Positions 1 to 22,600 of a stretch of DNA of 45,900 nt are shown here, one piece after another. The position numbers were made by a program, and so were the translations under genes. Source of the stretch: Bacteroidota bacterium (GTDB lineage Bacteria > Bacteroidota > Bacteroidia > UKL13-3). The number at the start of each line of letters is the position of its first letter. Positions within the stretch are counted from its first letter, which is position 1. Location of the stretch: the NCBI GenBank assembly GCA_031375995.1, contig JANMIV010000180.1, forward strand, positions 1 through 45,900. Direction: 5' to 3'. The notes beneath the pieces were generated by a model. That model was not told the origin of the DNA, searched no databases, and saw nothing but the letters and a program-made list of their open reading frames with translations.

Positions 1-2430
1 TCACCTTCATTGGTAGCAGGACAGCCAAGTACAGTTCCAGTAACGGTAACGAATATTGGTAACGCACCTACAACAGGTATAATTACGACGACAATTACTT
101 TACCAACAGGCACAAGTGCACCAGCAACTTTTACAAGCAACGGCAATACTTGTACAACAAGTGGTCAAACTGTAACGTGTACCAATCCTGGTCCTTTATC
201 TACTACAAGCCCTACAAATAGTACATTGATTAATGTACCTGTAACGGCTGCGCCAAGTATTGTGGGAACAAATCCTGGTCCATTTGCGGCAATGCCAAGC
301 ACACCAGGAGAAACAACTACGGCTAATAATCCAGCTGCACCAATGACACCAACTATGCCAGTTGTAGCAGCACCAGCACCTGATTTAGTAACAACAATTG
401 GACAACCTTCACCTTCATTGGTAGCAGGACAGCCAAGTACAGTTCCAGTAACGGTAACGAATATTGGTAACGCACCTACAACAGGTGTAATTACGACGAC
501 AATTACTTTACCAACAGGCACAAGTGCGCCAGCAGGCCCATTTGTAACCAATGGCAATACTTGTACAACAAGCGGTCAAACGGTAACTTGTACTAATCCT
601 GGTCCTTTGACAACTACTGCACCAAGCAACAGTACAGTAATGAATATACCTGTAACGGCTGCACCAAGCACCGTAGGAACTAACCCTGGACCATTTGCGG
701 CAACGCCAAGTACACCAGGCGAAACGACAACAGGTAATAATACTGCACCGCCAATGATACCAACAAACCCTGTTATCTCAGCAGCTGCACCAGATTTAGT
801 AACAACTATTGGAGCTGTTTCGCCTTCAATGGTAGTTGGTCAAATCAGTAATTTACCAGTGACGATAACTAATATTGGTACTGCGCCAACAACAGGTACA
901 GTTTCGACAACAATTACTTTACCAGCAGGAATTTCAACACAAACTTTGTTTGTAACAAACGGCTATACTTGTAGCACTTCTGGTCAAACAGTAACTTGTT
1001 TTTCAAATACACCATTGTCAAATGTAGCACCTAACAATGCTGCACTTTTACAAATACCAATTACACCAGCAGCAAGTATAGTAAATACGACACCCGTATT
1101 TAATGCAAATACATCAGGTGGTGGAGAACCAGCAGGAAATACAACAAACAATGCTGCTCCTCCAACAACATCAGGAACTGTATCGCCAGTCCCAGCACCA
1201 GATTTGGTAACGACAATTGGTCAGCCATTGACACCATTCGTAGCGGGTTCTCCAAGTAATGTACCAGTAACAATCAAAAATCAAGGGAATGCGCCTGACA
1301 ATGGCCCAATTACTTCTAATATTACGTTGCCAGCAGGATTTAGCACACCAGCTATTTTCTCGCCATCAGCAGGAACTACTTGTTCGACAACAGGTCAAAA
1401 TATAAGTTGTACAACAGCAGGCCCATTAAGTCAAACTGCACCAAACAATACAACTACATTTAATTTACCAATAACACCAGCTGCCAGTACAATTGGAACA
1501 ATGCCACAAACAACAGGCACAACAAGTTCTCCAAATGAACCAGCTGCAAATACAGGTAACAATCCTGCAACACCAATGTCGCCAACGACACCAGTTGCAG
1601 CTGCACCAGCACCAGATTTAGTAACATTTGTTGGACAGCCAGCGACACCATTCGTGGCAGGTTCTCCAAGTAATGTACCAGTAACGGTAATTAACCAAGG
1701 AACTGCACCAGCAAATGGCCCAGTAACAACAAGCATTACTTTACCAACAGGATTTAGTGCGCCAGCAATTTTTACGTCAAATGGAAATACTTGTACAACA
1801 ACGGGACAAATTGTTTCTTGCTCTAATCCAAGTCCATTGAGTAATATTGCGCCAGGTAATTCTATGACAATACAAGTACCTGTGACACCAGCAGCTTCTA
1901 CGGTAGGAACTACGCCGCAAACTAATGCGACTACTTCTGCACCAAACGAACCAGCTACAAGCACAGGTAATAATCCAGCTACACCAATGTCTCCAACGAC
2001 ACCAGTGGCAGCTGCACCAGCACCAGATTTAGTAACAACTATCGGACAACCATTGACACCATTCGTAGCAGGTTCTCCAAGTATCGTTCCTGTAACAGTA
2101 GCTAATATTGGTTCTGCACCAGCGAATGGTCCAATCAATACTACGATTACTTTGCCAGTAGGCACGAGCGCACCAGCGAGTTTCTCGCCAGTGGCAGGAA
2201 CAAGTTGTGCAACAACAGGTCAAACAGTATCTTGTACAACAACAGGTCTTTTGAGCCAAACTGCCCCAAATAACACAATTGTTATCAATGTACCAGTAAC
2301 GCCAGCAGCAAGTACAGTTGGAACTTCTCCATCTCCATTTACTGCAACACCAACAGCACCAAACGAAACAAATACATCTAATAATGCAGCTGCTCCAATG
2401 ACGCCAACAACGCCAGTTGCACCAGCGGCA
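1..2430 (+). repeat. Intragenic tandem repeat, period 408-414 nt, six units (first unit truncated by the window edge)
   Basis: The unit consensus is 'PDLVTTIGQP.P.(L/F)VAG.PS.VPVTV.N.G.AP..G.I.T.ITLP.G.SAPA.F...G.TC.T.GQ.V.C...GPL....P.N......PVT.AAS.VGT.P'. Units 1 and 2 are very similar at the DNA level (compare nt 1-340 with 401-740). Confidence 0.9.
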
Positions 2431-3225
2431 GTAGTTAATGTAAAATTGAGTGTAAAAGTATTTTTACAAGGGGCTTATGATGCAGCAACAGGTATGATGC
2501 GTGATGATTTACGTTCAAAAGGATTTTTACCAACAGCTCAACCATACTCAGCAATGGCTCGTACTTCTTATCATACAGGTACAGAAACAACAAGCGCAGC
2601 AGCATTGGCAGCAACAGGTTCAAATGCTATCGTAGATTGGGTATTGATAGAGTTACGCACAGGTGTTGGCGCAGCGACAAGAGTAGCTACTCGTGCCGCA
2701 CTCGTACAACGTGACGGCGATGTGGTTGATGTTGATGGTGTTTCGCCAGTGACATTCAATAATCGTGCAGCAGGAGCTTACTATGTTGTGGTTACACACC
2801 GCAATCACTTAGGAGTAATGAGTGAAGTTGCCGTAGCTTTGAGCGCAACACCAGCAACTTGCGATTTTACAGGTGCTTATGATGGTTATGGTTCTAACGC
2901 CATGAGAGCAATCGGTAATTTGAACGCTCTTTGGGCAGGTAATGCAAATCATACAGGAGTGACGCATAAATCATTGATTTTTAGTGGAGCAAGTAATGAC
3001 CCAGATGCGGTTAAAAATAATGTTTTGACTGCACCAGCTAACTCTTCTGCATTAGATTTCAGTTTTGTACCAATGGGTTATCATATCGGCGACACGAATT
3101 TAGATGGCGATGTAAAATACCAAGGTACAACGAATGATTTAGATGAAATGATTTTCTTCAACGTAATGACGCATCCAGCAAATGGTGCTCCATCACCGTT
3201 GCATTTGATTACTGAAAATCATTAA
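1..3225 (+). CDS. 3' portion of a giant secreted repeat protein (5' end outside the window): six ~137-aa DUF11/CARDB-like Ig-fold repeats, then a ~265-aa C-terminal beta-rich domain ending in dockerin/EF-hand-like loops
   Basis: The frame is open from nt 1. The track starts at an internal TTG at 10, but nt 1-9 encode SPS and continue the repeat 'SPSLVAGQPSTVPVTVTNIG'. Repeat boundaries 'PDLVT(T/F)(I/V)G' fall at nt 379, 790, 1198, 1612 and 2023. The C-terminal domain (nt 2431-3222) shares long motifs with the C-terminus of the 29219..44806 product. Stop codon at 3223-3225. Confidence 0.85.
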   Translation, partial: SPSLVAGQPSTVPVTVTNIGNAPTTGIITTTITLPTGTSAPATFTSNGNTCTTSGQTVTCTNPGPLSTTSPTNSTLINVPVTAAPSIVGTNPGPFAAMPSTPGETTTANNPAAPMTPTMPVVAAPAPDLVTTIGQPSPSLVAGQPSTVPVTVTNIGNAPTTGVITTTITLPTGTSAPAGPFVTNGNTCTTSGQTVTCTNPGPLTTTAPSNSTVMNIPVTAAPSTVGTNPGPFAATPSTPGETTTGNNTAPPMIPTNPVISAAAPDLVTTIGAVSPSMVVGQISNLPVTITNIGTAPTTGTVSTTITLPAGISTQTLFVTNGYTCSTSGQTVTCFSNTPLSNVAPNNAALLQIPITPAASIVNTTPVFNANTSGGGEPAGNTTNNAAPPTTSGTVSPVPAPDLVTTIGQPLTPFVAGSPSNVPVTIKNQGNAPDNGPITSNITLPAGFSTPAIFSPSAGTTCSTTGQNISCTTAGPLSQTAPNNTTTFNLPITPAASTIGTMPQTTGTTSSPNEPAANTGNNPATPMSPTTPVAAAPAPDLVTFVGQPATPFVAGSPSNVPVTVINQGTAPANGPVTTSITLPTGFSAPAIFTSNGNTCTTTGQIVSCSNPSPLSNIAPGNSMTIQVPVTPAASTVGTTPQTNATTSAPNEPATSTGNNPATPMSPTTPVAAAPAPDLVTTIGQPLTPFVAGSPSIVPVTVANIGSAPANGPINTTITLPVGTSAPASFSPVAGTSCATTGQTVSCTTTGLLSQTAPNNTIVINVPVTPAASTVGTSPSPFTATPTAPNETNTSNNAAAPMTPTTPVAPAAVVNVKLSVKVFLQGAYDAATGMMRDDLRSKGFLPTAQPYSAMARTSYHTGTETTSAAALAATGSNAIVDWVLIELRTGVGAATRVATRAALVQRDGDVVDVDGVSPVTFNNRAAGAYYVVVTHRNHLGVMSEVAVALSATPATCDFTGAYDGYGSNAMRAIGNLNALWAGNANHTGVTHKSLIFSGASNDPDAVKNNVLTAPANSSALDFSFVPMGYHIGDTNLDGDVKYQGTTNDLDEMIFFNVMTHPANGAPSPLHLITENH

Positions 3226-3383: not shown

Positions 3384-4220
3384 ATGAAAAAGAATATTTT
3401 TAAATCAATACTTATCGCAAGCGGACTTACTTTGAGCATGGCATCTGCTCATGCTCAAGTACAGTTCAAGGTGGAGCGCATGGGCGAAACCAACAATTTT
3501 ATGGTATATGCAGTTTCTTCTGAAACGTATGAAAATCCTAAAAACCTTATTTCCACAGCACAAGTAACGCTTGTTGCGCCTACACGTGATTTTCAGTTGG
3601 ATAAAATTGTAAATTTATATCCTGACGCAAAATGGCGTGTAAATGGTCGTACTGATGCACCAAAAGAAAATCCTAACCAAGATTATATTTATTTTGGTTT
3701 AGAAAATTTAGGTACAGGTGCGTTGAAATTTAAAAAAGGTACAGAAACACCTTTATTTTTAATTCAAGCTAAAACTTGCGAAAGCAATATCAGTTTGATG
3801 GATAACAAAAAAGATCCATTTATTTTTCCAAATTCTCGACAAATCAATGTAGGCAATCAGATTACTATTTTAGGTGCTGGTGGCGATGCGTTTAGAGGAA
3901 ATGTGAAAGACAAACAATCGGCAAATTGTTTGAAATCAAAAGTTGATTTAGATCCTTATGCTATTCGTATTTCACCGAATATCACGCAAGGTGGCTCTGT
4001 AAAAGTTGAATTTTTTAAAAATGATAAAGACAACGAAAAAGCAGAACTTATTATTTATGATGCTACGGGTCGTATGACAGTTTTGCAAAGTATTAGTGCA
4101 AAAAAAGGGTACAACAGTGTAGATGCAGATGTTTCGCAATTTCCAAATGGTACTTATTTCATGTCATTGAGAGGCTTACGAGAAGAGCCTTTGACTGCAA
4201 GATTGGTCATCTCAGAATAA
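3384..4220 (+). CDS. Small secreted protein: signal peptide, one copy of the shared ~160-aa N-module, and a T9SS type-A C-terminal sorting domain
   Basis: The track ORF is 3330..4220. I prefer ATG 3384 because MKKNIFKSILIASGLTLSMASAHA|QVQ is a canonical signal peptide, whereas ATG 3330 and 3345 lie in the hairpin 3311-3345. The module QVQFKVERMG...DYIYFGLENLG...PLFLIQ...DPFIFP...INVGNQITILG parallels the modules of 4642..22818. The last ~85 aa (ISPNITQGGSVKVEFF...IIYDATGRM...FPNGTYFMSL...ARLVISE) fit the Por_Secre_tail/TIGR04183 pattern. Confidence 0.8.
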   Translation: MKKNIFKSILIASGLTLSMASAHAQVQFKVERMGETNNFMVYAVSSETYENPKNLISTAQVTLVAPTRDFQLDKIVNLYPDAKWRVNGRTDAPKENPNQDYIYFGLENLGTGALKFKKGTETPLFLIQAKTCESNISLMDNKKDPFIFPNSRQINVGNQITILGAGGDAFRGNVKDKQSANCLKSKVDLDPYAIRISPNITQGGSVKVEFFKNDKDNEKAELIIYDATGRMTVLQSISAKKGYNSVDADVSQFPNGTYFMSLRGLREEPLTARLVISE

Positions 4221-4299
4221 ATCCAATATAGGGTTTAACAGCAGATGGTTTAGCCTTACCCAACTTTACGACTAGGGTAGGGAAGGGTAAGCTACTGTC

Positions 4300-4464
4300 T
4301 TAGGGACTACGTAACAAATAACTTAACAAGTCGGCTTGTTATCTTACGCCAATACTTCGTTAAAAATACTCGTCGATGCGCTGCGTCGCCTGCGTTTTTT
4401 GCCTCGTCTTAGCATAAAATAACTGCGCCTTGGTTGCTAACTTATTTATTACATAATCCCTTAA
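4300..4464. repeat. Long imperfect inverted repeat (hairpin) in the spacer upstream of the 6058-aa gene; candidate structured RNA (minus strand), MITE-like remnant or inverton
   Basis: Arm 4300-4330 pairs with 4433-4464 at 26 of 31 positions with one bulge. Inner segment 4338-4349 pairs with 4412-4423 at 10 of 12 positions. The 62-nt apical region 4350-4411 is locally GC-rich (tcgtcgatgcgctgcgtcgcctgcg). Confidence 0.5.
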
Positions 4465-4641
4465 TGCTGGAAAATCTTTTTTTATAGTAAGAGTTGTAGT
4501 AATCAATTAAAGTAAAGAATTAAACAAAACGCTTTTTTGGTGTGGGAGCTAAAAAAGTATTTTTAAAACTAAAAAAAAGTATGATTTATCGGGCTAAGAA
4601 AGCTCCATAAACCATTTGATTTATTTCAAAAAAATATAGAT

Positions 4642-7600
4642 ATGAAGAAGCTGTTACAATCTTTATGTTGGTGGTCACTTATGCTTATGCTGTCTTTTGC
4701 AGCAAACGCACAAGTCCAGTACAAAATACAATACAATACCTCATCGCAACGCTACGAGGTTTTTATGAAACCTTTGGTAAGTTACTCTGGTGCGCAAGCC
4801 TACACGGGTTCGGCACAGGTAACGCTTGTAGTTCCTACGGGTAATTTTACGCCTACGGGTCTGCAAAGTCAATTTGGAGCGTGGAACTTGGATAATGCAA
4901 TTGCTCGCCATCCAATCGAAAATCCAAATTTTGATTATATTTCCTTTTATATGCCTGCAACGGTAACAGGGATAAATTACGTCAATGGCGTAGAAATGCC
5001 TTTGTTCACTTTTACAAACTCGGGCTCTTGTATTGGTGGTATTAATTTAATAAATAATGCTACTGATCCATTTTTTCCTTCTCCAATAACGGGAACAAAT
5101 TCAAAAAATATCAATGTTGGTAATCAAATTTCTATTTTTGGTTATCAAAATAACTTGTTGGCAAATGCTTGGCAAAGTAACTACGGTGCAGCAGCTCCTT
5201 GTAGTACGTCGCCATCTTGCGCTATTCAATACCAAATCGTTAAAACAGGAGCTACGTATCAAGTAAATATGATACCAAATGTGACTTATACAACTGTTGG
5301 CAATATTACTGCTACACAGCAAGTTACGCTCAAAGTTCCTACTGGTTTGGTTTATACCAACCTTGTTTCTTTGACAAGTGGAGCAAACTATACACAAGGT
5401 TCTCGTATAAATGCGCCTTCGCAAGCGTTAGGAAGCGATTATATTTTGTTTAATTTGGGTAATTTAGGAACAAGTGCCTTGACTTATACCAATGGCACAA
5501 GTGTTCCTTTATTCAAATTTGATGTAGCAGGCAACTGCTCGGGCGATATTGCTTTTATGCCTAACAACGACCCTTTTACAAGTAATACTTCTTACAATTC
5601 TAAGCAGCAAATTACAGTATTTGGTTATGGGCAACCTGATGCTCCGATTTGTTTTTCGGGTTCAGGTTCAGTGCCTTGTACCAATGCACCGCCAGCGAGT
5701 TGCGGATTGGAATACGAAATTGAGCGTTTGTCGAATGGCAAATTTCAAGTTTCGATGACACCAAAAGTAACTTACACTGCGCCAAATAATACCACTTCTA
5801 CACAACAAATTACATTGAAAGTCCCAACAGGTTTTCAATACACAGGTTTGACAAGTATAAACGCTGGTGCAAATTATGTACAAGGTTCACGTATAAATGC
5901 ACCTTCACAAGCACCAGGTTTTGATTATATTTTGTTCAATTTGAGCAATTTGGGAACTACCGCCTTGACTTATACCAATGGCGTAAAAGTACCTTTGTTC
6001 ACTTTCGACAAATCAGGCGTTTGCAACAATGAGGTCATCGCTTTGATGCCAAACACAGACCCTTTTACAACAAATACTTCTTTTAATTCTAAACAACAAT
6101 GTACAGTGTTGGGCTACGGACAGCCTGATATTCCAATTTGTTTGAAAGGCACAGGTTCTGTAACTTGTACTCCGCCTGCGGCAAGTTGTGGTACAGAATA
6201 CGAAATTGAGCGTTTGCCAAACGGCAAATTTCAAGTTTCTATGACACCAAAAGTAACTTACACTGCGCCAAATAATACGACTTCTACGCAGCAAGTTACA
6301 TTGAAAGTCCCAACAGGTTTTCAATACACAGGTTTGACAAGTATAAATGCTGGTGCAAATTATGTACAAGGTTCACGTGTAAATGCACCTTCACAAGCAC
6401 CAGGTTTTGATTATATTTTATTCAATTTGAGCAATTTGGGAACTACCGCCTTGACTTACACCAATGGCGTAAAAGTACCGTTGTTCACTTTCGACAAATC
6501 AGGCGTTTTTAACAATGAGGTCATCGCTTTGATGCCCAATACAGACCCTTTTACAACAAATACTTCTTTTAATTCTAAGCAACAGCTTACTGTGTTAGGT
6601 TACGGACAGCCTGATATTCCAATTTGTTTGAAAGGCACAGGTTCTGTAACTTGTACTCCGCCTGCGGCAAATGCTTGCCAAATCAAGTACGAATTAGAAA
6701 CAGTTAATGGTTGTGCATACCAAGTCTCAATGACCCCTAACATTACGTGGACAACATCAGGAAATATCACAAAAGCGGCAAAAGTTACCCTTCGTGTTCC
6801 TCACGGTTGTTTTACGGTAGCAGACTTAACAAGCTTCAACTTTGGCGCTTCTTTTATAGTAGCAAATACTGCGCTTGCACCTTCTGACAATCCAGCCTAC
6901 GATTATATTTGTTTTACCATGACTACTGTTCCGACAGTTGGTATTCCATATATTCAAGGGCAAAAAGTACCGCTATTTACTTTTAAAAATGGTGGAACTT
7001 GTTGTGGTAATATTGAATTAATGCCAGCAACAGATCCTTTCGCAAACGGAAATACATTGAACCAAAATTTTGACCAACATTGGGAAACTTCAGGTACAGG
7101 CTCGGCAGGTGTTGAGCCTTGTATTATTGGAAATCCACAACCTTGTATTGCGCCTACTGGTTCAACTATTTTAGGTACAGATAAAACAATTTGTCAAGGT
7201 CAATCTACACAATTGAATGTAACAGGAACTTTTGTTGCTTACAATTGGTCAGGTGCAGGTTTGAGCGCAACAAATGTTTCAAATCCAACTGCGACACCAA
7301 CCGCTACTACGACTTATTACGTGACTGCAACAACCGCTTCGGGTTGTGCTATCAAAGATGATATTATCGTAACAGTAACTCCTTTACCAATTTTCACAAG
7401 CGTAACACCTTCTGCATCAACATCTTGTGTTTCAAGTAATGGTTCAATTACTATTGCAGCAAGTGGTACAGGAACACTCGAGTACAGTATTGACAATGGC
7501 ATATCTTGGCAATTGTCAAATGTATTTTTGGGTTTGAGCGCAGGTTCATATACTACAAAAATTCGCAGACAAGGTACGACTTGTGAAGTGGCAAATCCTT

Positions 7601-10600
7601 CAAATCCAGTTGTGATTACGACATCTGGCGCACCAACTATTGTAAGCGTAACAGGTTCAAATCTGAGTTCTTGCACTATCAATAATGGTCAAATTAGTAT
7701 CGTAGCAAGTGGTTCGGGTGGACCTTTCCGTTACAGTATTGATAACGGAGCGACCTACCAAACATCGCCATTTTTTGCAAGTCTGAGCGTAGGAACGTAT
7801 GCTATTAAAGTTACAGATGCAAGCGGCACTTGTGCTTCAACGGCTTCAACTGTAAATTTAACAGCTCCAAGTACACCAACTATTGTAAGCGTAATTCCTT
7901 CTAATACAACAGATTGTAATTTAAATAATGGTTCTATTTTAATAAATGCAACTAATGCAACGGCAGCAATGGAATACAGTTTAGATGGCTTTAATTGGCA
8001 AACATCAAACGTATTTAATGGTTTAGCGGCAGCGTCATATTTAGTAAGAGTAAGAACTGCAAATACATCTTGTGCAGTGACAGCAGCAGCTCCAATTGCT
8101 GTAAATATGCCTGCAATGCCAACTGTTCAAACTGTTACAACAGTTACTCCTTCTACTTGCGCTTTGGCAAATGGTTCTATCAATATTGCAGCGTCAGGTG
8201 GAAATGGAAATTTTGAATACAGCATAAATAATGGTGCAACATGGCAGTCTTCGCCTAATTTTGCTAACTTAGCATCAGGTACCTATTTTGTAGCAGTACG
8301 TACTTCGGGTACGGCTTGTTCAAAACCTTTTGCAGGAAATCCTGTGGTATTAAACATGACACAAGCACCAGCGATTACAGCTTTGGCAAAAATAAATACA
8401 AGCAATTGTGGTGTAAATGATGGTCAAATTGTAATAACAGCAGCAGGAAATGGCACATTGGAATACAGCGTAAACAATGGTACAACTTTCCAAGCGAGCA
8501 ATACTTTTTCAGCATTAGCTGCAGGAACTTACAACATTATGGTAAGAACAACGAACAATACAGCTTGTACTTCGGTTGTTCCAAACTGTGTAATTCCTAC
8601 GCTTACACAACCTTCGGTAAATAATTTTTCAGTAACACCTACAAGCGATTGCGCTCAAAATAATGGTACAATTAGTATCAACGCATCAGGCGGTGTTGCT
8701 CCTTTACAATACAGTATAAATGGTACAACTTGGCAATCAAGCAATGTCTTTGTCGGTGTAGCAGCAGGATCATACACTTTACGTGTTCGCAATGCAAATG
8801 GTTCTTGTGCAAATACAGGCAATACTCAAGCAGTAATCAGCGCACCAGCTTCGCCAAGTATAACCTCAGCAACAGCAACAGGCGCAACTTGCGGACAAAC
8901 GAATGGTTCAATTACAATTATTGCCAATTCTCCTTCGGGCGTTAGCGGCTTACAATATTCTATCAATAATATTGCTTGGCAAACGTCAAATATTTTTACC
9001 AACGTAGCGGCAGGAACTTATACGGCTTATGTTAGAAATGCCAGCGCAACTTGTACTGCAACTTCTACTTCAACTGTTACCGTTCTTCAAACAGCTGGTG
9101 CAAATATTACAGCGGTTAGCATCACAAATTCAAATACTTGTGCATCGCCAAACGGTATAATTTCAATTACAGCAAATGGTGGAATAACGCCATTGTCATA
9201 CTCTATTGATGGTGGAATAAATTTCCAAACATCAAATACATTCAATAATGTAGCAGCTGGAATGTACGAAATTGTAGTAAGAAATGCCAGTGGAACTTGT
9301 CCAGCGGTACTTTCTCCAATTACAGTTACAGCTCCGACAGCACCAAGTATTGTAACTACTATCAGTACCAATCCTTTGGGTTGTAATCAGGGTAATGGCT
9401 CTATACAAATTTTAGCAAATGCGTTGCCTTTGGGTTTAGGAGGATTATTAGAATACAGCCTTGATGGCAGTATTTGGCAAACATCAAATCTATTTAATAA
9501 TCTGACAGGTGGTTCATATACGGCTCTTGCTCGTAATAGCGGTAATACAACGTGTACTACAAGTGCCAATGCACCAGTAGTTTTGACACCTAACGCAACA
9601 GCTCCAACGATTAGTAATATTTCAAAAACAAACCCAAGTTCTTGTGGTGCATCAAACGGTACTATTACTGTTTTAGCCTCAGGAACTGGCGGATTAGAAT
9701 ACTCTATTGATAATATTCATTGGCAAAATGCAAATTTATTCTCAAATTTAGCAGCAGGCTCATACAATGTTTTTGTTAGAAATGCCAATGGCACTTGTCC
9801 AGTGGCTTATAGCTTAAACCCTGTTGTATTAAACGTGAGTGGAGGATTATCTATCACAAATGTGAATGGTACAAATCCAAGTAACTGTGGTACAAATGAC
9901 GGTTCAATTGCAATTTCAGCAACTGGCTCAGGCGCTCCATATCGTTACTCTATCAATGGCGGCGGATCATTCCAAAATTCTTCTGTCTTTACAGGTTTAG
10001 CCGCAGGCGTTTATAATATCGTAGTGACGATGTCAAATGGAGATTGTCCAACGACTGCACCTGTATTGACATTAACTGCACCATCAGCACCTACTTTGGT
10101 AAGCAGCGCAAGCACAAATCCAACAAGTTGTGTAAATAATGACGGTACAATTACTATCAATGCAATAGGAGGAACAGCTCCTTACGAGTATAGTTTAGAC
10201 GGTAATATTTGGCAAAATTCAAATGTATTTGTAGGTTTAGCAGCAGGTTCGTACACTACTCGTGTACGCAATGCCAACGCTTCGTGTGTAGTTTCATCAT
10301 CAAATGCAATTATACTGATAGCACCAGCATCACCTACGATTTCAAGTTTTTCAAAGACAGACCCGAGTTCTTGTAGTACAGCAAATGGCTCTATTACAAT
10401 TATAACGAGTGCATCAAATGTAGAATTTTCAATAAATAATACGACTTGGCAAGCATCAAATATTTTTTCGGGTTTAAGCGGTGGTTCATATACAGCATAC
10501 ATTCGCAATAATAACGGTACTTGTAAAACAACATACAATACGCCAATTGTTTTGAACGCAGGTGGCGCACATAGTATTGCTAATGTAAGTGTAACAAATC

Positions 10601-13600
10601 CAAGTGATTGTGCTAAAAACGATGGTCAAATCAGCATCACAGTAAATGGTGCAGGCGGACCATTCCGATACAGCATCAACAATGGTACTACATTTCAGTC
10701 ATCGCCAATGTTTAGTGGTTTGGCAGCAGGTTCTTATAGTATTGTTGTAACAGATGCAAGTGGAGTTTGTTCTGCATCATCACCGTCAGTGGTTATTACA
10801 GCACCAAGCGCACCAAGTATTTTATCCGTAACACCTACACCTACATCAGATTGTAGTTTGTCAGACGGAGAAATAAATGTTACAGCAACGTTTGTTGCGC
10901 CTTCTACAGCGGGACAATACAGTATAGATGGTATCAATTGGCAAACTTCTAATAATTTTACAAACGTAGCTTCGGGCGCATATTTAGTACGTGTACGCAA
11001 TGCAAACGGTTCTTGTACTGTTGTTGGAAATACACCAATTATCGTAACAACACCAGCACAAGCAACTATAACAAACGTTAGCTCAACAGCTCCTGCAACT
11101 TGCGGTCAAAATACAGGTACAATTACCGTGTCAGCAACAGGTGGCGCAGGTCAATTAGAGTATTCTATTGACCAAACCAACTGGGGTACAAATACGGTGT
11201 TTACAGGTTTAGCATCAGGTACTTATTATGTTTTTGTTAGAAATCAAGACAACTCTTGTTCAAAACCTTACGGTGGAAATCCAGTAGTTATTAATGCTAC
11301 GGGCGCACCTCAAATTACAAATGTAACTAAAACAGTACCAACGAATTGTAACGTAAATGATGGTAAAATTATCATCACAACTTCTGCGTCTTCAAGTGTT
11401 TTAGAATACAGTATCAATAATGGTGCAAACTACCAAGCGTCTAATACGTTCAACGGATTAGCGTCAGGTACTTATAACATAACAGTAAGAATTGTTGGCG
11501 GAAATACAACTTGTACATCAAGTGTTCCAAATTGTGTAATCCCAACACTAACTCAACCCAATATTTCAAACGTAATCGCTTCAAATCCAAGTGATTGTGC
11601 TTTAAATAACGGAACAATTACCATCGTTGCAAACGGTGGAGTAGCTCCTTTACAATATTCTATCAATGGTTCACAATGGCAATCGAGCAACGTATTTTCA
11701 AATGTAGCCGCAGGGTCTTACAGTGTAAAAGTACGCAACTCAAATGGCTCTTGTGAATATACAAATACAGCAGCAACGGTTTTAGTTCAACCATCTGCAC
11801 CAAGCAATGTAACAGCTACTACGACACCTGCAACTTGCGGTCAAACAAACGGTTCTGTTACAGTAAGTGCAACGGCTTCTTCGGGAGCAGAATATTCTAT
11901 CAACGGAATTCAGTGGCAAACAGCAACTTTATTTAGCAATGTAGCTGCAGGAACTTATACTGTTTTTGCAAGAAACACCAACGGAACGTGCCAAACACAG
12001 GGTGTTTCTACTGCAACAGTTTCACAAACAGGTGGTTCGAATATTTCAAACGTAACAGTTACAAATTCAGTTACTTGTGGTTCAAATAGTGGTCAAATCG
12101 TAATCAATGCGAATGGAGGAACTGCACCTTTGCAATACTCAATCAATGGTGGTCAAACTTACCAAGCGTCTAATATTTTCAATAATTTAGCAGCAGGTAC
12201 ATATAATATTGTAGCAAGCAACAGCAATGGAACTTGTTCAGCAGTATTAAGCCCAATTACTTTGATAGCACCTACTACACCAAATTTAGTAGCTGCAATA
12301 ACTTCAAATCCAACAGCTTGTAACCTTAACGACGGTACTTTGACTGTTTTAGCAACAGGAAATGGAGGTTTGGAATACAGCACAAACGGTACTTCTTGGC
12401 AAACGTCAAATGTATTTACAGGTTTGGCAGCAGGCAGCTACATCGTAAGAGTTCGTGCAGCAGGCAGCGCAACTTGTGTTACAAGTGCAAGTACGCCAAG
12501 TGTTTTGGTAGCACCAACAGCACCAAGTATTACAAACGTAAATTCAACCAATCCATCTTCTTGCGGAGGTACAAATGGTTCTATAACGGTTACAGCTTCG
12601 CCAAGTCAAAATGTGCAATACTCTTTAAATGGTATTGTTTGGCAAAATACAGGTATTTTTAGTGGTTTAGGAGCAGGCTCTTATACCGTCCAAATTCGTA
12701 ACGCAAACGGTACTTGCTTAGTAACAAATCCTTCACAAGTAGTATTAAATGCCACGGGAGGTCCTCAGATTGCAACCACATTGGTCGTAAATTCTGACGA
12801 TTGTAATATTTTAAATAATGGAAAAATAACTGTTTTAGCAAATGGTGGAGTAGGGCAGTTGCAATACAAAATCAGTAGCGCAAACGCTTATCAAATTTCA
12901 AATATTTTTACCAACTTAGCAGCAGGAAATTACAGCATCACAGTAACTGATGCGTCAGGTCTTTGCCAAACGACAACAACAGCAACTTTGACAGGCCCAA
13001 CTGCGCCACAAACGCCAGTAGCATCTGCAACGCCTGTGACAAATTGTGCTATGCAAAATGGTACGATTACAGTAAGCGCACCAATAGGTGTAAATTACGA
13101 ATACAGCATCAATAACGGACTTTCTTGGCAAACAGCTACTACATTTACTAACGTAGCAGCAGGAAACTACATCGTAACAGTACGTACCAGAAATACAAAT
13201 TGTAAATCAGAAAGTACAGTTATCAATGTTGGAAGTCCAGCAGTACCAACTTTTGGTACGGTTGATGTGAACTTTGGAATTTCAGGTTGTAGTATTACAA
13301 ACGGTACAATCGTTGTAAATACTTCAAATACAGGCAATTGGGAATATTCTATAGACAATGGTTTGACTTGGCAAGCAAGCAAAACATTCAGCAATGTAGC
13401 GCAAGGCTCTTACAATGTAATGGTACGTAGTGTAGGCACGCCTATCGCTTGTGCTGTGGCTTATGTAGGAAATCCTATTGCTTTAACTGCACCGAAAGCA
13501 CCAACTGTTTTAGCTATTTTAACCGAACAAGCAACAGTTTGTAACGGTACAGACGGTAAAATTACAATTACAGCAACAGCTAACTCTACGTTAGAATATT

Positions 13601-16600
13601 CTATCAATAATGGAACAAGTTATCAAGCGTCAAACGTTTTTGCAAATTTAAGCGCAGGAACTTATACGATTTTGGTACGTGATGCAGCTTCTTGTACAAG
13701 TAGCGGCGGACAAGTTGTTATTTCAGGCAGCACAACGCCAACTGCAATTGCAGTAGCAACAGCGCAAATGTCTGATTGTAACAAAAACGACGCAACCATT
13801 ACAGTAACAAATGTAATAGGCGGAACAGCTCCTTACGAATACAGCTTAAATGGTACAACTTGGCAAACTTCTTCTACATTTACAAGTGTAGCAGCAGGAA
13901 ATTATACCGTTCGTGTACGAAATGTAGGCTCAAATTGTGTTTTCACAAACTCAACATCTACTGCAATCAACACTTTAAACGCACCAACTATCAATAACAT
14001 TACACCAACAAGTGCAACTTGTGGTCAAAATAATGGACAAATTGTAGCGTCGGGAAGTGTAGGAGCGTTATTTTCTATTGATGGTATAAACTACCAAAAT
14101 ACAGGAACTTTTGCTAATCTCGCATCAGGTACTTATACGGTATTTATTCAAAATGCAAATAATACTTGTACGACAGCAGCAGCAACACCAATTGTGTTGT
14201 CTTCTGTATCAGCACCAACGATAAGCAGCGTAACAACTACCAATCCAACAGAATGTAACTTAACAAATGGTACAATTACGATAAACGCAACTTTCCCTTC
14301 GGGAGCAGCAGGTGCATCGTATTCTATAGACGGAGGTTTAAATTTCCAAGGTAGCAATGTCTTTAATAACATCGCTGCTGGTACTTATCCTATTGTAGTA
14401 AAAGGTTCTGGCGCAAGCGCAGCTTGTCCTGTAACTTACAGTCCTGTAAAAATAACCGCACCAAGCGCACCTCGTATTGTGGTCGTTGTTAGTACAAACC
14501 CAACATCTTGTGTTAATGACGGAAAAATATCCGTAATTGCAAACGACGGTACAGCACCATTACAATATAGCTTAGACGGTATTACTTGGCAAGATAGCAA
14601 AGATTTTACAGGTTTAGCAGCAGGTTCATACACAGTTCGTGTACGTAATTTGAATACTTCTTGTGTAAAAACGGCTAATAATGCAACTGTTTTAGTAGCA
14701 CCTAACGGCATATCAATCAGCAATGTTGCTAAGACAGACCCTACAACTTGTATCGCATCAAACGGTACGATAACAATTACAGCAGGAGTTGGAGGAGCAC
14801 AATATTCTATTGATAATATTCACTGGCAAACGGCAAATGTATTCAATAATTTGCCAGCAGGAGCTTATACAGCTTACATTCGTAATGCTGATGGTACTTG
14901 TGAAACGCCTTACTCAGCAAATCCAATTGTACTCAATGGTACAGGAGCACCAGTTATTACAGCAGTTCAAAAAACAGATGTAACAGACTGTAATTTAGCA
15001 AATGGTTCTATTACCATTCAAATTGCAGGTAGTGTTGCACAATTCAAATACAGTATTGACAATGGCGCTACTTACCAATTGTCACAATATTTCTCAGGTT
15101 TGACCGCAGGAACTTACAATATAAAAGTAACTGACTTGGCAGGAAATTGTCCAGCAGTTATTCCAAATATGGTAGTTTCTTCGCCAATTGCTGCCAATAT
15201 TACGGCAGTAAATGCAGTACCTACAAGCAACTGTGGCGTAAACAATGGCTCTATTTCAATAACAGCTACATTTAGCTCAGGAAATGGAGGATTGTACAGC
15301 ATTGACAACGGTGCAAACTGGACAAGCAGCAACGTATTTAATAATTTAGCCGCAGGCTCATATATTATTAAAGTAAAAAATGCGGACGGCAAATGTGAGC
15401 AAATTTATCCAACAGCAGTAGAAGTAAAAGAGCCTACAAAACCAACTTTCGTAAGCGTAACACAGGTAGATCCTTTGGCTTGTGGACTAAACACGGGTTC
15501 AATTACCGTCGCAGCAACGGGTGGAACAGGTACTTTTGAATACAGTATAAACGGTACAACTTGGCAAGCAAGTGGTTCATTTACAAATCTTACAGCAGGA
15601 GCATATACTGTTGCTGTTCGTAATGCAGGAAGCAATTGTCCTGTTCAATACGCAGGTTTAGTAAATATTGCAGCACCTCCTGCACCAAGTATTATAAGTG
15701 TTTTGTCTAAAAATCCTACTACTTGTAGTGGTAATAATGGCGAAATAAAAATTACAGCAACTTCTGCTACATCAGGTAACGGATTAGAATACAGTATCAA
15801 CGGTTCAAACTATCAAAGTTCAAATACCTTTACAGGTTTATCAACAGGTACTTATAATATTTTAGTTAGAAATGTAGGTGGCACGTGTCCAGTTACTTAT
15901 CCAGCTGTGAGTATTACAGCACCAGTAGCACCAATAATTAATGCTACAATTCCAACAGCAGTTTCTGACTGCAACGGCAATGACGGTAAAATTATCGTAG
16001 GCGCATCGTCAAGTTCCGCTTTGGGATTAGAATACAGCATCGATGGTACAAATTGGTCGGCTTCTAATTTCTTAATGAATTTAGTGGCAGGAACATATAC
16101 TGTTCGTGTTCGTGATTTAGGTACAACTTGTATTGCGACCTCAGCACCTGTAACAGTTTTACAACCTAATAACCTAACTGTTATTAATAATGTTGCAAAA
16201 ATAAACCCAACAGGTTGTGGTAAAAATGATGGTTCAATTACAATTACAGCAACGCCTAACGCTGGCGTAATGTACACTATTGACGGTATCAATTGGACTA
16301 CAAACAATACTTTCAACAACTTAGCAGCAGGTTCTTACACGATAAAAGTTAGAAATGCAAATGGTACTTGTCCAGTGTCTTACAGCGCACTTACAATTTT
16401 AACGCCAGGGCCAATTTCTCCACAAATTACAAATGTAACTATTACAAATGTAAGTGATTGCGCTGCAAATGACGGAAAACTTGAAATCACCGCAACATTC
16501 GGTGCTACAACAGGAGCGTTAAATAAATACTCTATTGACGGTGGTGTAACGTTCCAAAGTTCAAATACTTTTACAGGTTTAGCAGCTCGATATTATGATA

Positions 16601-19600
16601 TTGTAGTTCGCAACAACGATGGTTCTTGCTCTACTTTATTTATTCCTGCAGAAATTAAAAAACCTGCAACACCAGCTTTGGTAACAGCTATTTTGACAAA
16701 ACCGTCAGATTGCTCTATTCCAAATGCTAAAATTACAGTATTGGCTTCGGGTGGTATTAGCCCTTTACAATACTCTATTGACAATGGTGCAACTTGGACA
16801 ACAAATAATGTATTCGGTGGTCTTGCGCCAGGGTATTACTACGTAAAAATTAGAAATGCCAATGGTACTTGTACGCAGACTTACGGACCAAATCCTGTAA
16901 AATCTTGTGAATTTGACTTAGCATTGCGTAAAACGCTTACCAATAAAGCAGATAGCGTAACTCGTTTAGGTCGTGATATTGATTTTACAATTAAAATATT
17001 TAACCAAGGTGCAGTAGCGGCAAAAGATATAGAAGTAGTAGATTATTTACCAAAAGGTACAGTATTAAGTCCGAAAGATCAAAATGGTTGGTCGATGTTG
17101 CCACAAGTAGCAGGCACAACCGTGAACTCAAATACGATTTTTGATCCTTCATTGCCTTTAAAAGCAAAGAAAATTATTACGCAAACTATTCAACCAGGCG
17201 ATAGCGCAGTAGTTCAAATTAAGTTAAGAATTATGTTTGGTGGTGCTTTTGCAAAATTAACAAATGTTGCCGAAATAGCAGGAGCAAAAGATGAAGCGGG
17301 CGTATTCCGTCAAGATGGAGACTCTACTCCTGATGATACAAAAGGTAACGATAAAGAAGTAGATGATGCAATAGACGATAAAGGTATCGTAGATGAAGAT
17401 GATGAAGATCCAGCACCTTTCAAATTAGATGATTATGATCCGCATGGTTACATTTATTGTGACAAAGCAGGTACACTGATGAAAGGTGGTAAAATTCAAT
17501 TGCTTACTGCACCAGTAGGTGGAGCAATTTACTTTGCAACTGATAACAATGGTATTCCAATTGATGGTCGTAATGGTGTTTATCAATTCTTTACAAACGG
17601 TGTTCCTGGTAATTACAACATTACTTATGTAAATCCAAACGGCTATACATTGAGTACGATGGTATTGCCACAAGCAGGTTCATTTAATCCAGCAGGTACA
17701 GACAATACAGCAATTGATAAAGACGGTATAGCAAATAACATCGTAGTTTTAGGTTCTTTGGAGCAAGCAGATACTTTATCAAATAAAGCACCTGTGGCAA
17801 ACCCTTATTATTTGTCATTTACTTTCAATGCAAACGAAACAACTATTATTTCTCATAATAATATTCCTGTTTCTTGTGCTTGCGTAACAGCAACAGTTTG
17901 TGCAGATACCAATGGCGATGGCGCACCAACAGCAGGCGAGCCAGGCATAAACGGTGTTACCGTAGAACTATACAGTTGTACAACAAACGCCTTATTACAA
18001 ACAGCCGTTACTTCAAACGGAGGTAAGTATAAATTTAGCGGTTTATTGGCAGGGAACTATAAATTGAAATTTACTTTAGCAAATGGTTATAGCTATGCAA
18101 CAAACGCAAGTGGACAAACAGTAGGTATTGATAATCAAGGAAATACGCCTTGTTTTGTCTTAGACTACGCAGGTTGTCAAGAAAGAACAGCTTGTTTGAA
18201 GGCTTGCCCAACGATTACAATTTCTCCAAACGTTACTATTTGTGCTGGTTCAAGCACCGTATTAGCAGCAACAGGTGGAAATGGTACATTCTCATGGTCG
18301 CCAGCAGCAGGATTAAATGCGACAAGTGTCGCAAGTGTAACAGCTACGCCAAACGCAACAACAGTTTATACGGTTACTTCGACAGGCGCAGGTTGTACAT
18401 CAATAGCTTCTGTGACAGTAACAGTCGTAACGCCACCTGCAAGTAATTTTACAATTAATGTAAATCAACCTTCAACTTGTACTAATGCGAATGGTTCTAT
18501 TACCGTAAACGCAACAGGCACAGGCTTGGAGTACAGCATAAATGATGGAAATACTTGGCAAGCGTCAAATATATTTAGTGGCTTAGCCTCAGGTTCTTAT
18601 GCGGTAAAAATACGTAATGCAGGTTCTCAATGTGCTGTAAGTTACGCAAGCAATCCAGTAGATTTAACACCAGCAAGCGCACCAAATATTACAAATGCAA
18701 CAGCTGTAAATCCTACAAATTGTACAACGCCAAATGGCTCTATCAACATCACCGCAAACGGTGGTTCAGGAGCTTTGCAGTACAGTATCAACAATGGACT
18801 AAGCTACCAAACAAGTAATTTATTTACAAATTTGGCAGCAGGTACGTATCAGATAAAGGTTAAAAACGGCAATGGTTCTTGCGAAAGCTCTTATCCAAAT
18901 GTTGTTTTAACGAACAATATACCTGTCATTAACGCTGTAAATGTCGTTTCAGATTGTGCAAACAACAACCGTAGCATTACGATTTTAGCTTCGGGCGGTG
19001 TTTCTCCTTTGGAATATAGCATCAACGGTGGTACAACTTGGACAACCAATAATGTATTTACAGGTCTTGCACCAGGTACTTACAATGTAGCAGTTCGCAA
19101 TTTTAACGGTACTTGTGTTGTAAATTACACACAAAACCCGATTACGATGTGTATCTACGATTTGGCTTTAAGCAAAAAATTAGCAGCAGGTCAATCAGGT
19201 TTAGTACGTTTGGGCGATATTGTAAACTACGAAATTACAGTTATCAATCAAGGTGGAAATCCTGTGAAAGATGTACAAGTAGTGGATTATTTGCCACAAG
19301 GAATGCAACTTTCTCCAGCAGGTAACAATGGTTGGGTCCAAACAAGCACAGATATGGTAATAAATACCATTTCTTCTACCATTGCAGCTGGTCAAAGTGT
19401 AGTGCTGAATATGGCAGTTCAATTAGTATATGGTAGCCCAAATACTTCTTTGAAAAACGTTGCGGAGATAAAATCAATGAAAGACGTAAATGGCAATCCT
19501 GTAACGGATATCGACTCTACGCCAGACATGATAAAAGGCAACGACAACGAAAAGGACAATGTTATCAACGAAAATGGTAAAAATAACCCAAGCGACGATG

Positions 19601-22600
19601 AAGATGACAGTGATTTTGAAGATATTTTACTCGATAATTTTGACCCAAGCGGTTATATTTATTGTGAAAAAACAGGTAAAATAATCACAGGTGGAAAGCT
19701 CAAATTGGTTTCTGCACCAGCAGGTGGAGATGTATTTTTCTCAACAGATGCCAATGGTATTTTATTGGATGGTTCGACAGGTATGTATCAAGTATTTACC
19801 AACGGTGTAAGTGGAAATTATACATTTACTTACGTACACCCGAACGGTTATCCATTAAGTACAACTTGTTTGCCAGAAGCAGGTTCATTTAATCCAAAAG
19901 GAAAAGATGGCGATGCTGTGTATGACAAAGACGGCGCTGTAAACGGTACAATTCACTTAGGTTCAGTAGCAAACAACGGTTACATTGCAAATAAATCTTG
20001 TGCAGCAAACAAATATTTCTTGTCATTTACTTTAGAAAAAGACGAAAAAGTATTGATTGCGACCAACAACCTTCCAGTATCTTGTGCTATTATTTCAGGT
20101 ACTATCAAGGACTGCAAAACACAAGCAGGAGTAAGCGGTATGGATGTAAAAATCTACGATTGTAACTCTACAACAGGTGTAGCATTTGCTTTTGGAAAAA
20201 CTGATGCCAACGGAAATTATATTTTTGATGGCTTAAAAACAGGTAAGTATAAAATACAAATCGTAGGTGCTTCGGGACAAATTATCCAAGGTGGTAAGTT
20301 TGACCAATCGGGAACTTCGGCTTGTATAGACATCAAATACGGCGAAATGATTATGGACTTGAACGCTTGTTTAAGCACTTGCCCGACCATCAACAACGTA
20401 TTGACTGTACAACCTTGGTGTCCTAAAAACAATGGTGTAATCATCATTGATGCAGTTTGCCAAGGCGATTTAGAATACAGTATTGATGGTGGAAAAACGT
20501 ATCAGCACCTCAACGCATTTATGAATCTTGCGCCAGGTTCTTACACGATAAAAGTAAAATCGTCAGGTTGTGAGCAAGATTACAAGAGTGTAATTGTTCT
20601 CGCTTGCGAAAACGATAACACAGGCGGAAAAGGTTCTATCTCTGGAAAAACATTCAAATCTTGTAGCGATAGCGGCATCAAAGGTGCAAACAAAGGTTTA
20701 GCAAACGTGAAAGTGACCTTGACTTCAAGTACAGGTACAACTCAAAACGCTATAACAAACGCAACAGGTTTATACAACTTTACAAACGTAGAAGCTGGTG
20801 CGTACTCGATTACTTTTGAAAAAGCAACAGGTTTTGATTTTGCAAAACAAAATCAAGGCAACGATGACGCAAACGATAGCGATGTAGATGCTTCTGGAAA
20901 AACAACAATTAACGTAGCAGCAAACCAATTGTTAGACAATGTTGATGCAGGTTATAAAGATGTTCAAGCACCAGTTCTGACTTTTATCCATCCTTTATTG
21001 GTAGGTAAAAAAGACGGCGAAACCGTCTATATGGAATGTGGTTTTGAAGAAGTTTTAAAAGAAATGCACGCTACGGCAAAAGACAATTGTGACCCGAATC
21101 CAAGCATTAAAATGGAAGACGGTTTGGCAGTCGTGAGCAAAGAATGCAGCAAAGATGGATTTTTGGTAAAAATGTATTGCGGTTGGATAGCAACAGACGA
21201 GTGTGGCAATAAGTCGCAAACTTGGTTGTACATCGTGGTTCGTGATACACAAGCTCCAACTTTGTCAGGCGTTCCTGCGAGCACAACAATTGGCGAAAAA
21301 GATGTTGTTCCTGCTGCTGCAAATGTGACAGCAACGGATAAGTGTGATACAGGTGTAAAAGCTGTTTTTGCAGAAACCAAAAATGGAAATATCATCACAC
21401 GCACTTGGACAGCAACCGACCAATGTGGCAACAAAACAACTGCTACACAAGTCATTACGATTAAAAAAGACAACGCTGGCCCTTGTACCATTAGTGTAAC
21501 ACCAGTTCCAGTAACTTATGCAGCTTCATGTGCGGGTAAAGACGGCAAGGCGAAAATAACGCCAAGCAACTACACCTACAAATGGGCAGATGGTGTTATC
21601 GGAGATACTCGTTTAGATTTGGACAAAGGAACATACAGCGTAACGGCAACAGATGCCAATGGTTGTACTGCAATTTTTAACGTAATCATAAAAGACGGTT
21701 GTACGTTTACAGGTTTAGCATTTGCTAAAAAAGGCGAAATTCGTCAAGTAGCTTGTGGAAATCCGCAAAACGAATATTGTTTAGATTTTGATTTTGCAAC
21801 TTTCGTAACAGAGTACAAATTGCTTGAAAACGGACAGCCTTATGCCAATAAAATTCAGCCTTGCGTGATGCAATCACATGGAGAATACTCTCTTGCTGGT
21901 TTGATAAACGTTCCTTTGAGTGTTCAAGATTGGACAGTTGCTGGTCAGAAAGTGATATTTAGCTTTGCTAACTTAGATGATTTGGCGGCTAAAATGAACC
22001 AATACGACAGCAACGGCGGTTGGAAAATAAATGCTTTGGACGAGAAAATTTACAACGAGAATTTTGATAAAAAACGTTACGGCGACCTTACAATTGGCAA
22101 TACTAATTTGGGTGTAAAATGGATTATGCAAGCAAGTTCATTCTCTATTCCAAAAGGTATAAAACTAATGGTAAGCGGCATGGGTAAGCACGAAATTGTT
22201 TTGGCACACAAAACAAAACCTTACCAAGATACGATGCGCATACAGTTTGCTTGTACTACTCCTCAAACCTTCAATGTTATACTTGACGAAGGCGATATAG
22301 AAGGCGTGGATATTGCAACTACAGAATTAGTAGGTATAAAATGCACTATGGAACAACACGAAATAGACGGATTGAGCAATTCAGCCGAGTTCCGTGGTAC
22401 ACTTCGTGGCGCAGCATCTATGGTAATGGTAACAGGTATGCACGTCGGTGAAAAACGTACGATGTACACCATGTGCGACGAATACGGTATTTGCGATACA
22501 GCTGAAATCCGTGTTTTGGTACGTGAAAAAATAAAAGAAGAGGAAGTTGTAGATAAATACATAAAAGTATATAACGGATTTTCTCCTAACGGCGATGGTC

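Follow-up and report, generated by a model that had tools for sequence, protein, structure and literature searches.

The 45,900-nt stretch of DNA analysed here (hereafter the window; contig JANMIV010000180.1 of assembly GCA_031375995.1, from a Bacteroidota bacterium) contains three genes whose products carry the same domain of about 160 residues, hereafter the module, at their mature N-termini. The module is a real domain family of Bacteroidota surface proteins that is held by no curated library, and its homologous copies have a confident and consistent predicted fold. Its genes are coupled in gene order to genes whose products end in a second uncatalogued domain, here called X, and subtypes of the two domains cluster together. 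From this genomic evidence we propose, tentatively and at a little under an even chance, that the module could be a protein-docking socket for the long form of X that ends the neighbouring giant proteins. Both domain families are new to curated libraries, while the principle of modular docking is already known from cohesins and dockerins.

A domain family held by no curated library

The module is found in a small protein of 278 aa, in a giant of 6058 aa, and in a gene that leaves the window at its right edge (Table 1). An initial annotation, made from the letters of the sequence, had proposed one homologous module in these three genes, and alignment, BLASTP, and leave-one-out profiles agree on both the homology and the positions. 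By BLASTP, the small-protein module matches the five copies in the giant with E-values of 7e-22, 3e-21, 4e-21, 2e-20, and 3e-13 at 33–36% identity. Leave-one-out profiles (E-values computed at Z=1e6) recover the small-protein copy at 7e-29, copy 1 of the giant at 1.4e-33, copy 5 at 1.1e-35, and the right-edge copy at 2.8e-4. The five tandem copies that had been placed at the N-terminus of the giant were found at aa 24–841 (nt 4711–7164), and copies 3 and 4 among them are 96% identical in protein and ~93% in DNA. The right-edge copy, with P0040 as its nearest relative, belongs to a divergent subtype, and the two subtypes in the window are only ~16–19% identical to each other. Landmark motifs listed earlier for all copies are seen in the alignment, most clearly in the small protein and in copy 1 of the giant; as a description of the right-edge copy the list fails in part, with DPF replaced and INVGNQ absent. 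A six-frame scan of the window, including the 5195-aa gene and the left-edge open reading frame (ORF), found no further module copy.

Two cysteines are nearly invariant in the module alignment. Relative to copy 3, copy 4 has two cysteines replaced together (SGVC to SGVF and QQC to QQL), and this joint loss hints at a disulfide between them in copy 3.

By eye the module had been left without a family, and database searches gave the same outcome. Pfam-A (2025) and NCBIfam (2026) hold nothing that matches the module region of the three genes, and both recognise the flanking parts; PDB sequence searches with two module profiles returned chance-level matches only. The sole NCBIfam trace is choice_anch_W on the right-edge copy (E 0.093, 12.3 bits vs. 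a cut-off of 45), and none of the TANFOR or choice-of-anchor models in NCBIfam matched the module above its cut-off. When 63 diverse members were scanned singly against Pfam at E-values up to 10, no recurrent family emerged. No description of the module was found in the literature on type IX secretion system (T9SS) adhesins, Bacteroidetes cohesin-like modules, or Saprospiraceae adhesins.

A profile search run exhaustively over 1.84 billion representative proteins assigned 860 clusters at 50% identity to the family at E-values up to 1e-3, and 646 at E-values up to 1e-10. Named sources are mainly metagenome-assembled genomes (MAGs) of Saprospiraceae and Saprospirales, together with Emticicia and Spirosoma (Saprospirales, Cytophagales), and one matching contig derives from an activated-sludge metagenome. 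Architectures were counted in the 150 best representatives, which carry between one and seven module copies per protein. The first module starts by residue 70 in 129 of the 132 proteins with complete N-termini (median start at residue 23, typically ...A↓QVxFK). In 72 of the 150 an additional copy lies >150 residues past the first, in some cases >1500 residues into the protein, hence the tip always bears a module, though modules are not restricted to it; the strict N-terminal position claimed in the initial annotation thus holds for first copies and fails for later ones. Later copies begin with a cysteine in 82 of 124 cases. About 83 of the representatives end in a T9SS sorting domain and 14 in X, while the C-termini of the remainder are missing or unknown, many of these proteins being metagenome fragments. 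A T9SS C-terminal domain (CTD) and X never occur together among the 150. Our own iterated profiles for the type A and type B sorting domains overlapped, with 46 proteins matching both, and therefore only counts for "A or B" are given.

The 278-aa protein comprises a signal peptide, one module, and a T9SS type A anchor signal, and nothing else, as the initial annotation had read it; judged by its sequence, it is the minimal displayed form of the module. Its CTD scores above the curated cut-offs of both Por_Secre_tail (PF18962; E 4.5e-7, 30.5 bits vs. 27) and TIGR04183 (E 6.3e-6, 26.1 bits vs. 23), which with a signal peptide judged by eye identifies it as type A cargo. Cleavage of the signal peptide would leave Gln25 as the first residue of the module, and a linker of ~15 residues separates the module from the CTD. 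This stand-alone form of ~277 aa, module plus type A CTD, makes up 39 of the 41 clusters (90% identity) in the homologue search; a look-up of the exact sequence of the small protein gave no record. The 6058-aa protein has the hallmarks of a type B, SprB-like adhesin, namely a CHU_C domain and SprB repeats (Pfam E 2.7e-61, in 8 stretches), along with SdrD_B (9e-47) and DUF11 (7e-16) matches in its stalk.

Predicted fold of the module

Models were built with AlphaFold2 (AF2) from a 24-sequence alignment. The whole small protein was predicted as all-beta with a predicted local distance difference test score (pLDDT) of 89.6 and a predicted template modelling score (pTM) of 0.82, plus a helix at aa 5–20 of low pLDDT in the signal peptide region. 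In Foldseek, this two-domain model returned only generic tandem Ig/FN3 matches (template modelling score, TM, 0.2–0.27; root mean square deviation, rmsd, 13–20 Å) and was uninformative, so a single module, copy 3 of the giant, was remodelled alone (pLDDT 92.1, pTM 0.88). Strand order is the same in both models, and strand positions coincide near residue-for-residue after subtraction of the signal peptide; copies with an identity of only 35% thus agree in predicted fold. Neither placement in a known family nor inconsistency of fold, the two findings by which the initial annotation proposed that its account be rejected, was observed.

Searched against the PDB with Foldseek, copy 3 matches cohesins or cohesin-like modules in ~31 of the top 50 hits, with TM scores of 0.45–0.55 (up to 0.52/0.55) and probabilities up to 1.0. 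The entries include 2ccl_A, 6kgc_A, 5nrm_A, 3ul4_A, 4fl4, and 2xdh, and the proteins matched include CipA and OlpA/OlpC of C. thermocellum, CohA2 of C. acetobutylicum, ScaB of A. cellulolyticus, ScaC of R. flavefaciens, and entries from C. perfringens and A. fulgidus. Viral structures (BFVD) gave nothing. The Pfam Cohesin model (PF00963) had no match at E-values up to 1 in the window proteins or up to 10 in the 63 diverse members; as a positive control, the same hidden Markov model detects a cohesin in a related locus (L022, below) at E 5.8e-6. We describe the module as a predicted beta-sandwich with conserved cysteines that lies nearest the nine-stranded jelly roll of cohesins, at a borderline level of similarity, and do not file it as a cohesin. 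The label is limited to "cohesin-like fold" because the fold match is borderline and no sequence-level link to cohesins was found.

A C-terminal domain, X, in the upstream genes

The two copies of X in the window, both of the long form, end the left-edge ORF and the 5195-aa protein and are 39% identical by BLASTP (E 6e-39). X spans ~250–270 aa and is strictly C-terminal. It consists of an N-terminal segment (VKVxLQGA...MRDxLR...LPxxxPY), a middle part that is probably a beta domain (VDWVxIELR...ALxQRDGDIVDxDG...HRNHLG), and a duplicated repeat (WxGNxN...YQGxxxDxDxIFFxVL, then GDTNMDGxxIFQGxxNDVDxxIFFNVL) in which each unit joins a DxNxDG...ND loop to a hydrophobic segment. Proteins with the long form end in ...FIIxEQLP, as part of a tail specific to that form (...IFFNVLxHPxN...FIIxEQLP), and those with a short form in ...NDRDPILVNVGGTxPTxTRxEQLP. 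Both forms thus finish in (E/Q)Q(L/I)P at the extreme C-terminus, which resembles a sorting or processing tag.

The X family contains at least 1614 clusters at 90% identity. Searches of Pfam (including 14 X members at lenient thresholds), NCBIfam, and PDB sequences returned nothing credible, and one source labels an X member "hemagglutinin protein". X-ended proteins carry no recognisable type A or type B T9SS domain. Module and X stand at opposite ends of a single chain in the 14 representatives noted above and in a 1673-aa homologue from a close relative of the window locus (L013).

Gene order couples the module to long-form X

The small module protein retrieved 12 genome loci, and in every one of them the gene directly upstream on the same strand ends in X, at 35–52% identity to the window copies and with E-values down to 2e-82, and an X-ended upstream gene is also present in six further close-relative contigs (L013–L018). 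Further loci were reached from X instead. Spirosoma foliorum (CP059732.1, about 6.669–6.682 Mb) encodes a 352-aa X protein, then a 1752-aa module...X protein, and then another module-first gene, and the locus holds no stand-alone small module plus type A protein. Locus L022 contains two X-then-module gene pairs, and in L023 a 475-aa X gene without a module is followed by a small module plus type A protein.

A metagenome scan based on X and blind to the module yielded 80 loci, among which X falls into the long and the short form. Given at least 700 nt of downstream DNA, a module-first gene lay within 1.5 kb after long-form X in 31 of 36 cases and after short-form X in none of 50 (Fisher p 1.6e-18), with a median of ~170 nt from the stop codon of the X gene to the module start. 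In 14 of the 31 the downstream gene encodes the small module plus type A protein.

This specificity bears on a role for the module as a carbohydrate- or substrate-binding adhesin tip, akin to a carbohydrate-binding module (CBM), at the far end of stalks for gliding or adhesion, the small protein being a short-range version of it. Several observations are consistent with such a tip: CBM3 entries (CelQ 5gxx/5gy0, 4b96, and 3ndy), which have the cohesin-type jelly roll, are among the Foldseek matches; in a protein held by its C-terminal T9SS domain, the usual attachment of T9SS cargo, an N-terminal module would lie at the far end; the host proteins have SprB repeats, cadherin-like, and Ig-like adhesin domains; and tandem copies would increase avidity, an effect seen in many lectins. 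We nevertheless judge this role unlikely, though still worth serious weight, since it leaves unexplained both the adjacency to long-form X alone and the subtype co-clustering described below. Moreover, Pfam scans of the window proteins and of the 63 members matched no CBM family, which limits the likeness to CBM3 to the level of the fold, and the short linker of the small protein, beside the membrane, would give poor reach to external substrates.

Across 20 adjacent X–module pairs, the identities among X domains track those among modules (Mantel r 0.91, p 2e-4). The X of the 5195-aa protein, which precedes the divergent-subtype module of the window, is 57–58% identical to the X preceding divergent-subtype modules in L013 and L022, and only 42% to the X of the left-edge ORF. 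Because it is nearer to the corresponding X of other genomes than to its neighbour, the data fit two old X–module specificity classes that have been kept as pairs. The pairing of subtypes fits cognate recognition, and is also expected from gene pairs inherited as units.

Divergence between subtypes speaks less well for homotypic contact, in which modules would bind each other, joining giant tips to small proteins on the same or neighbouring cells and so giving cohesion to filaments or flocs. One locus would display the module both near the surface, on the small protein, and far out, on the giants; the sources include Saprospiraceae MAGs and the activated-sludge contig, and Saprospiraceae are filamentous or floc-associated bacteria. 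Homotypic contact appears very improbable all the same, as it gives no role to X, the strongest genomic correlate of the module, and as subtypes that differ this much suit distinct partners better than self-recognition.

Adjacency and co-clustering could also come, without any contact between the domains, from inherited tandem arrays of module...X paralogues, with the module itself serving as a structural N-terminal cap or spacer. Genes that are module-first and X-last do exist (the 14 representatives, L013, and L019), arrays of them would juxtapose X and module automatically, and copies 3 and 4 of the giant attest to recent internal duplication. We regard this account as improbable, if less so than homotypic contact: the commonest downstream gene, for the small module plus type A protein, has no X, and some upstream X genes have no module, such as the 5195-aa gene of the window and the 475-aa gene of L023. 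The predominance of the ~277-aa stand-alone form among homologue clusters likewise argues for a function of the module itself.

A candidate docking system

The initial annotation had proposed that the module is the functional, binding head of its gene family. That idea is refined here rather than proven, and partner binding is its best-supported version because of the N-terminal position, the cohesin-like predicted fold, and the genetic coupling to the C-terminal domain of the neighbouring giants. If this is right, the module would be a socket for chains of the same system and not a head that grips an external target.

Under the docking reading, the T9SS would export the small protein, and the type A CTD would then tether it to the surface, where it would present one socket near the membrane on a short linker. 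Tethering to the cell surface is established for type A T9SS cargo as a family. The SprB-like 6058-aa protein would present five sockets at its distal end. Long-form X proteins, in which no T9SS sorting domain is recognisable, would dock into these modules: the 5195-aa protein, with X only, as terminal cargo, and the module...X protein encoded at the two edges of the window as an adaptor that plugs in and offers a new socket, so that such chains could extend the assembly. We infer module–X binding, the surface anchoring of the small protein, any role for calcium, and the route by which X proteins are exported. A fuller version, possible though one we lean against, is a plug-and-socket system of the Bacteroidota's own, made of two uncatalogued families, in which small type A proteins serve as anchors and perhaps as a sorting domain in trans, and in which module...X chains join head to tail. 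Sorting in trans would mean that X-ended giants are exported while bound to the small type A module protein.

Several points weigh against docking, besides the inherited arrays discussed above. The likeness to cohesin is at the level of the fold and borderline (best Foldseek E 1.5e-3, rmsd 5–6 Å), and CBM3 modules and integrin leg domains are also among the matches. Profile comparison of the module with a cohesin profile by hhalign gave a probability of 0.08%, a weak negative since that profile is thin (7 close sequences, Neff 1.7), a large-database search with 1aoh having returned only 11 close matches. X has no Dockerin_1 match at E-values up to 10, and a comparison of X with the CelS dockerin by hhalign found a match in an 11-residue GDxNxDGK loop only, at a probability of 3%. 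Numbers in the window are unequal, with seven module copies for two X domains. In Flavobacteriales loci and in L024, the module profile fails to detect the N-terminal domain of the small type A protein that follows X. Finally, docking at the surface leaves unexplained how X-ended proteins cross the outer membrane.

Variants of the arrangement were seen in several loci. In the Flavobacteriales MAG loci L020, L021, and L026, and at 3950–4807 of L024, an X gene precedes a type A protein of 257–285 aa with an N-terminal domain of ~160 aa. By hhalign, the 257-aa Flavobacteriales protein gave a probability <1% against the module and no significant match to cohesin; its N-terminal domain may be a very divergent, or an unrelated, counterpart of the small module protein. 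Directly downstream of its two X-then-module pairs, L022 (9701–12196) encodes an 831-aa protein with a true Pfam Cohesin domain (E 5.8e-6, above cut-off), sub-threshold matches to Dockerin_1 (E 0.003) and Por_Secre_tail (E 0.0038, 17.9 bits vs. a cut-off of 27), and a match to our own type A profile. A cohesin joined to a probable type A sorting domain therefore occurs beside X and module genes. Four tandem X-only genes (262–296 aa) lie at 3161–6695 of L025, and the giant encoded ~2 kb downstream of them has two N-terminal modules and CHU_C. An X gene followed by a small module gene is also present on a contig labelled as a Gemmatales (Planctomycetota) MAG (L006, BPJP01000034.1); as this contig is only 5.6 kb long, the occurrence is probably a binning error and not real spread beyond Bacteroidota.

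Comparison with known systems

The closest known parallel is the cohesin–dockerin pair (PF00963). Like cohesins, which are its best and most numerous structural matches, the module is predicted to be all-beta, probably a jelly roll, and spans ~150–160 residues; it likewise occurs singly on a protein with a predicted surface anchor and in tandem on a giant "scaffold", with a candidate plug on adaptor-like chains, and the candidate partner X is likewise C-terminal, with a duplicated Asp/Asn-rich loop and a hydrophobic segment. By analogy, the proposed layout would parallel the anchoring, adaptor, and primary scaffoldins of the cellulosome. Unlike cohesins, however, the module shows no sequence or profile similarity to that family, and its structural TM score is only ~0.5. 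X differs from dockerins in its size (~270 aa vs. ~60–70), in its longer loops, and in the lack of a Dockerin_1 match. The module is hosted by Bacteroidota T9SS adhesins, at whose mature N-terminus it sits, rather than by secreted enzymes of cellulosome-producing Firmicutes. CBM3 shares a related jelly-roll fold, but its entries rank below cohesins and are fewer, and no CBM sequence match was found.

Among T9SS cargo, the 6058-aa protein shares SprB repeats and CHU_C with SprB-type adhesins, and the small protein shares the type A domain, whereas X-ended proteins carry neither sorting domain. No N-terminal head domain of the module's family was found in the T9SS literature. Downstream of a gene for type B cargo there is typically a gene for its cognate, PorP/SprF-like partner (PMC9143113), and the pairing of a giant-cargo gene with a dedicated downstream partner gene thus has a precedent. 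The partners known there are outer-membrane proteins of the PorP/SprF family and differ from a small type A cargo that bears a cohesin-like domain. In the window, the 6058-aa type B gene was seen to have no PorP/SprF-like neighbour; the gene after it encodes a 2-oxoglutarate-Fe(II) oxygenase. In large Bacteroidota proteins defined by TANFOR or by the choice-of-anchor domains of NCBIfam, an N-terminal domain is combined with alternative C-terminal sorting or anchoring domains (PMC7073777 for TANFOR). The module is similarly N-terminal and paired with alternative C-termini (type A, type B, and X), without an NCBIfam match to this group.

Giant T9SS adhesins are among the largest bacterial proteins. 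To our knowledge, what their far end carries, and how chains without a sorting domain reach the surface and are retained there, is largely unexplained. The present analysis defines two sizeable uncatalogued families and a sharp rule of gene order that ties them. Docking of X by the module, if real, would account for the anchoring of proteins without a T9SS sorting domain, would amount to a docking system analogous to cohesin–dockerin with no detectable sequence relationship to it, and would supply new orthogonal pairs for surface display. Both the 278-aa protein and the C-terminal 270 residues of the neighbour encoded upstream are of a size that allows direct tests, and the X–module arrangement is present in the complete genome of a named species, Spirosoma foliorum.

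Layout of the window

Table 1 Genes and domains located in the 45,900-nt window
Feature	Position	Strand	Remarks
Left-edge ORF	10..3225	+	1071 aa; cut by window edge
Long-form X, C-terminus of left-edge ORF	2407..3222	+	X profile E 2.8e-108; directly upstream of small module gene
278-aa small module gene	3384..4220	+	
Signal peptide, 278-aa protein	3384..3455	+	Translation; homologues P0001–P0039 share MKK... start
Single module copy, small protein (aa 25–186)	3456..3941	+	Alignment, BLASTP; all-beta in AF2
T9SS type A CTD, small protein	3996..4220	+	Pfam/NCBIfam match at aa 205–264
6058-aa giant gene	4642..22818	+	
Signal peptide, 6058-aa protein	4642..4710	+	Translation; module from Q24
Giant module copy 1 (aa 24–192)	4711..5217	+	N-terminal type; starts AQVQYK, has INVGNQ motif
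Giant module copy 2 (aa 193–353)	5218..5700	+	Internal type; Cys first
Giant module copy 3 (aa 354–515)	5701..6186	+	Modelled alone by AF2
Giant module copy 4 (aa 516–678)	6187..6675	+	Recent duplicate of copy 3
Giant module copy 5 (aa 679–841)	6676..7164	+	Most divergent of the five; BLASTP E 3e-13
Giant stalk	7156..22560	+	Ig_7, SprB repeats, SdrD_B, DUF11, CarboxypepD_reg-like domains
T9SS type B (CHU_C) CTD, giant	22561..22818	+	PF13585 E 4.1e-28
2-oxoglutarate-Fe(II) oxygenase	22971..23585		In the block between the giant genes
BRO-N protein	23697..24545	-	
Rep3 replication initiator	24591..25997	-	PF01051 E 7e-28
ParA-like ATPase	26940..27590		
5195-aa gene	29219..44806	+	
Long-form X, C-terminus of 5195-aa protein	43973..44803	+	X profile E 3e-95; directly upstream of right-edge module gene
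Right-edge gene	44951..45900	+	Leaves the window at its end
Signal peptide, right-edge gene	44951..45019	+	Translation, frame 2
Divergent-subtype module, right-edge gene	45020..45535	+	Followed by CARDB-like repeats running off the window

The true start codon of the 5195-aa gene is uncertain; as read, its product opens with an N-terminal leader of unusual length, in which two hydrophobic stretches precede a possible ...IYA↓QAVD cleavage site. A scan of the intergenic regions for promoters and terminators returned chance-level matches only.

The window may be most of an adhesin plasmid of ~46–47 kb from a Saprospirales-like bacterium, as suggested by its Rep3 and ParA genes and by the top plasmid match of the Rep protein, which is to plasmid NC_015513 of Haliscomenobacter hydrossis DSM 1100 (44% identity over 98% of the protein). 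GC content dips to 0.31 at 26–30 kb of the window. The module itself had no match among PLSDB plasmids by tblastn.

The left-edge ORF and the right-edge gene have in common CARDB-like repeats of ~135 aa. The complete 1673-aa protein of L013 is matched by the right-edge gene over its N-terminal part at 61%, and by the left-edge ORF over its C-terminal part at 66% identity; on this sequence comparison, the two are probably the ends of one gene split by the ends of the window. Neither this split gene nor domain X figured in the initial annotation. Comparison of the window ends found no terminal overlap, and direct joining is out of frame. Hence the window either lacks some of the repeat sequence or forms part of a longer piece of DNA, and a closed circle is unsupported by the window ends. 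In L013, whose small protein is 87% identical to that of the window, an X-ended giant is followed by the 1673-aa protein (divergent module, CARDB-like repeats, and X), the small module protein, and a 6513-aa protein with five modules, SprB repeats, and CHU_C. The window would have this same gene order were its right end to run on into its left.

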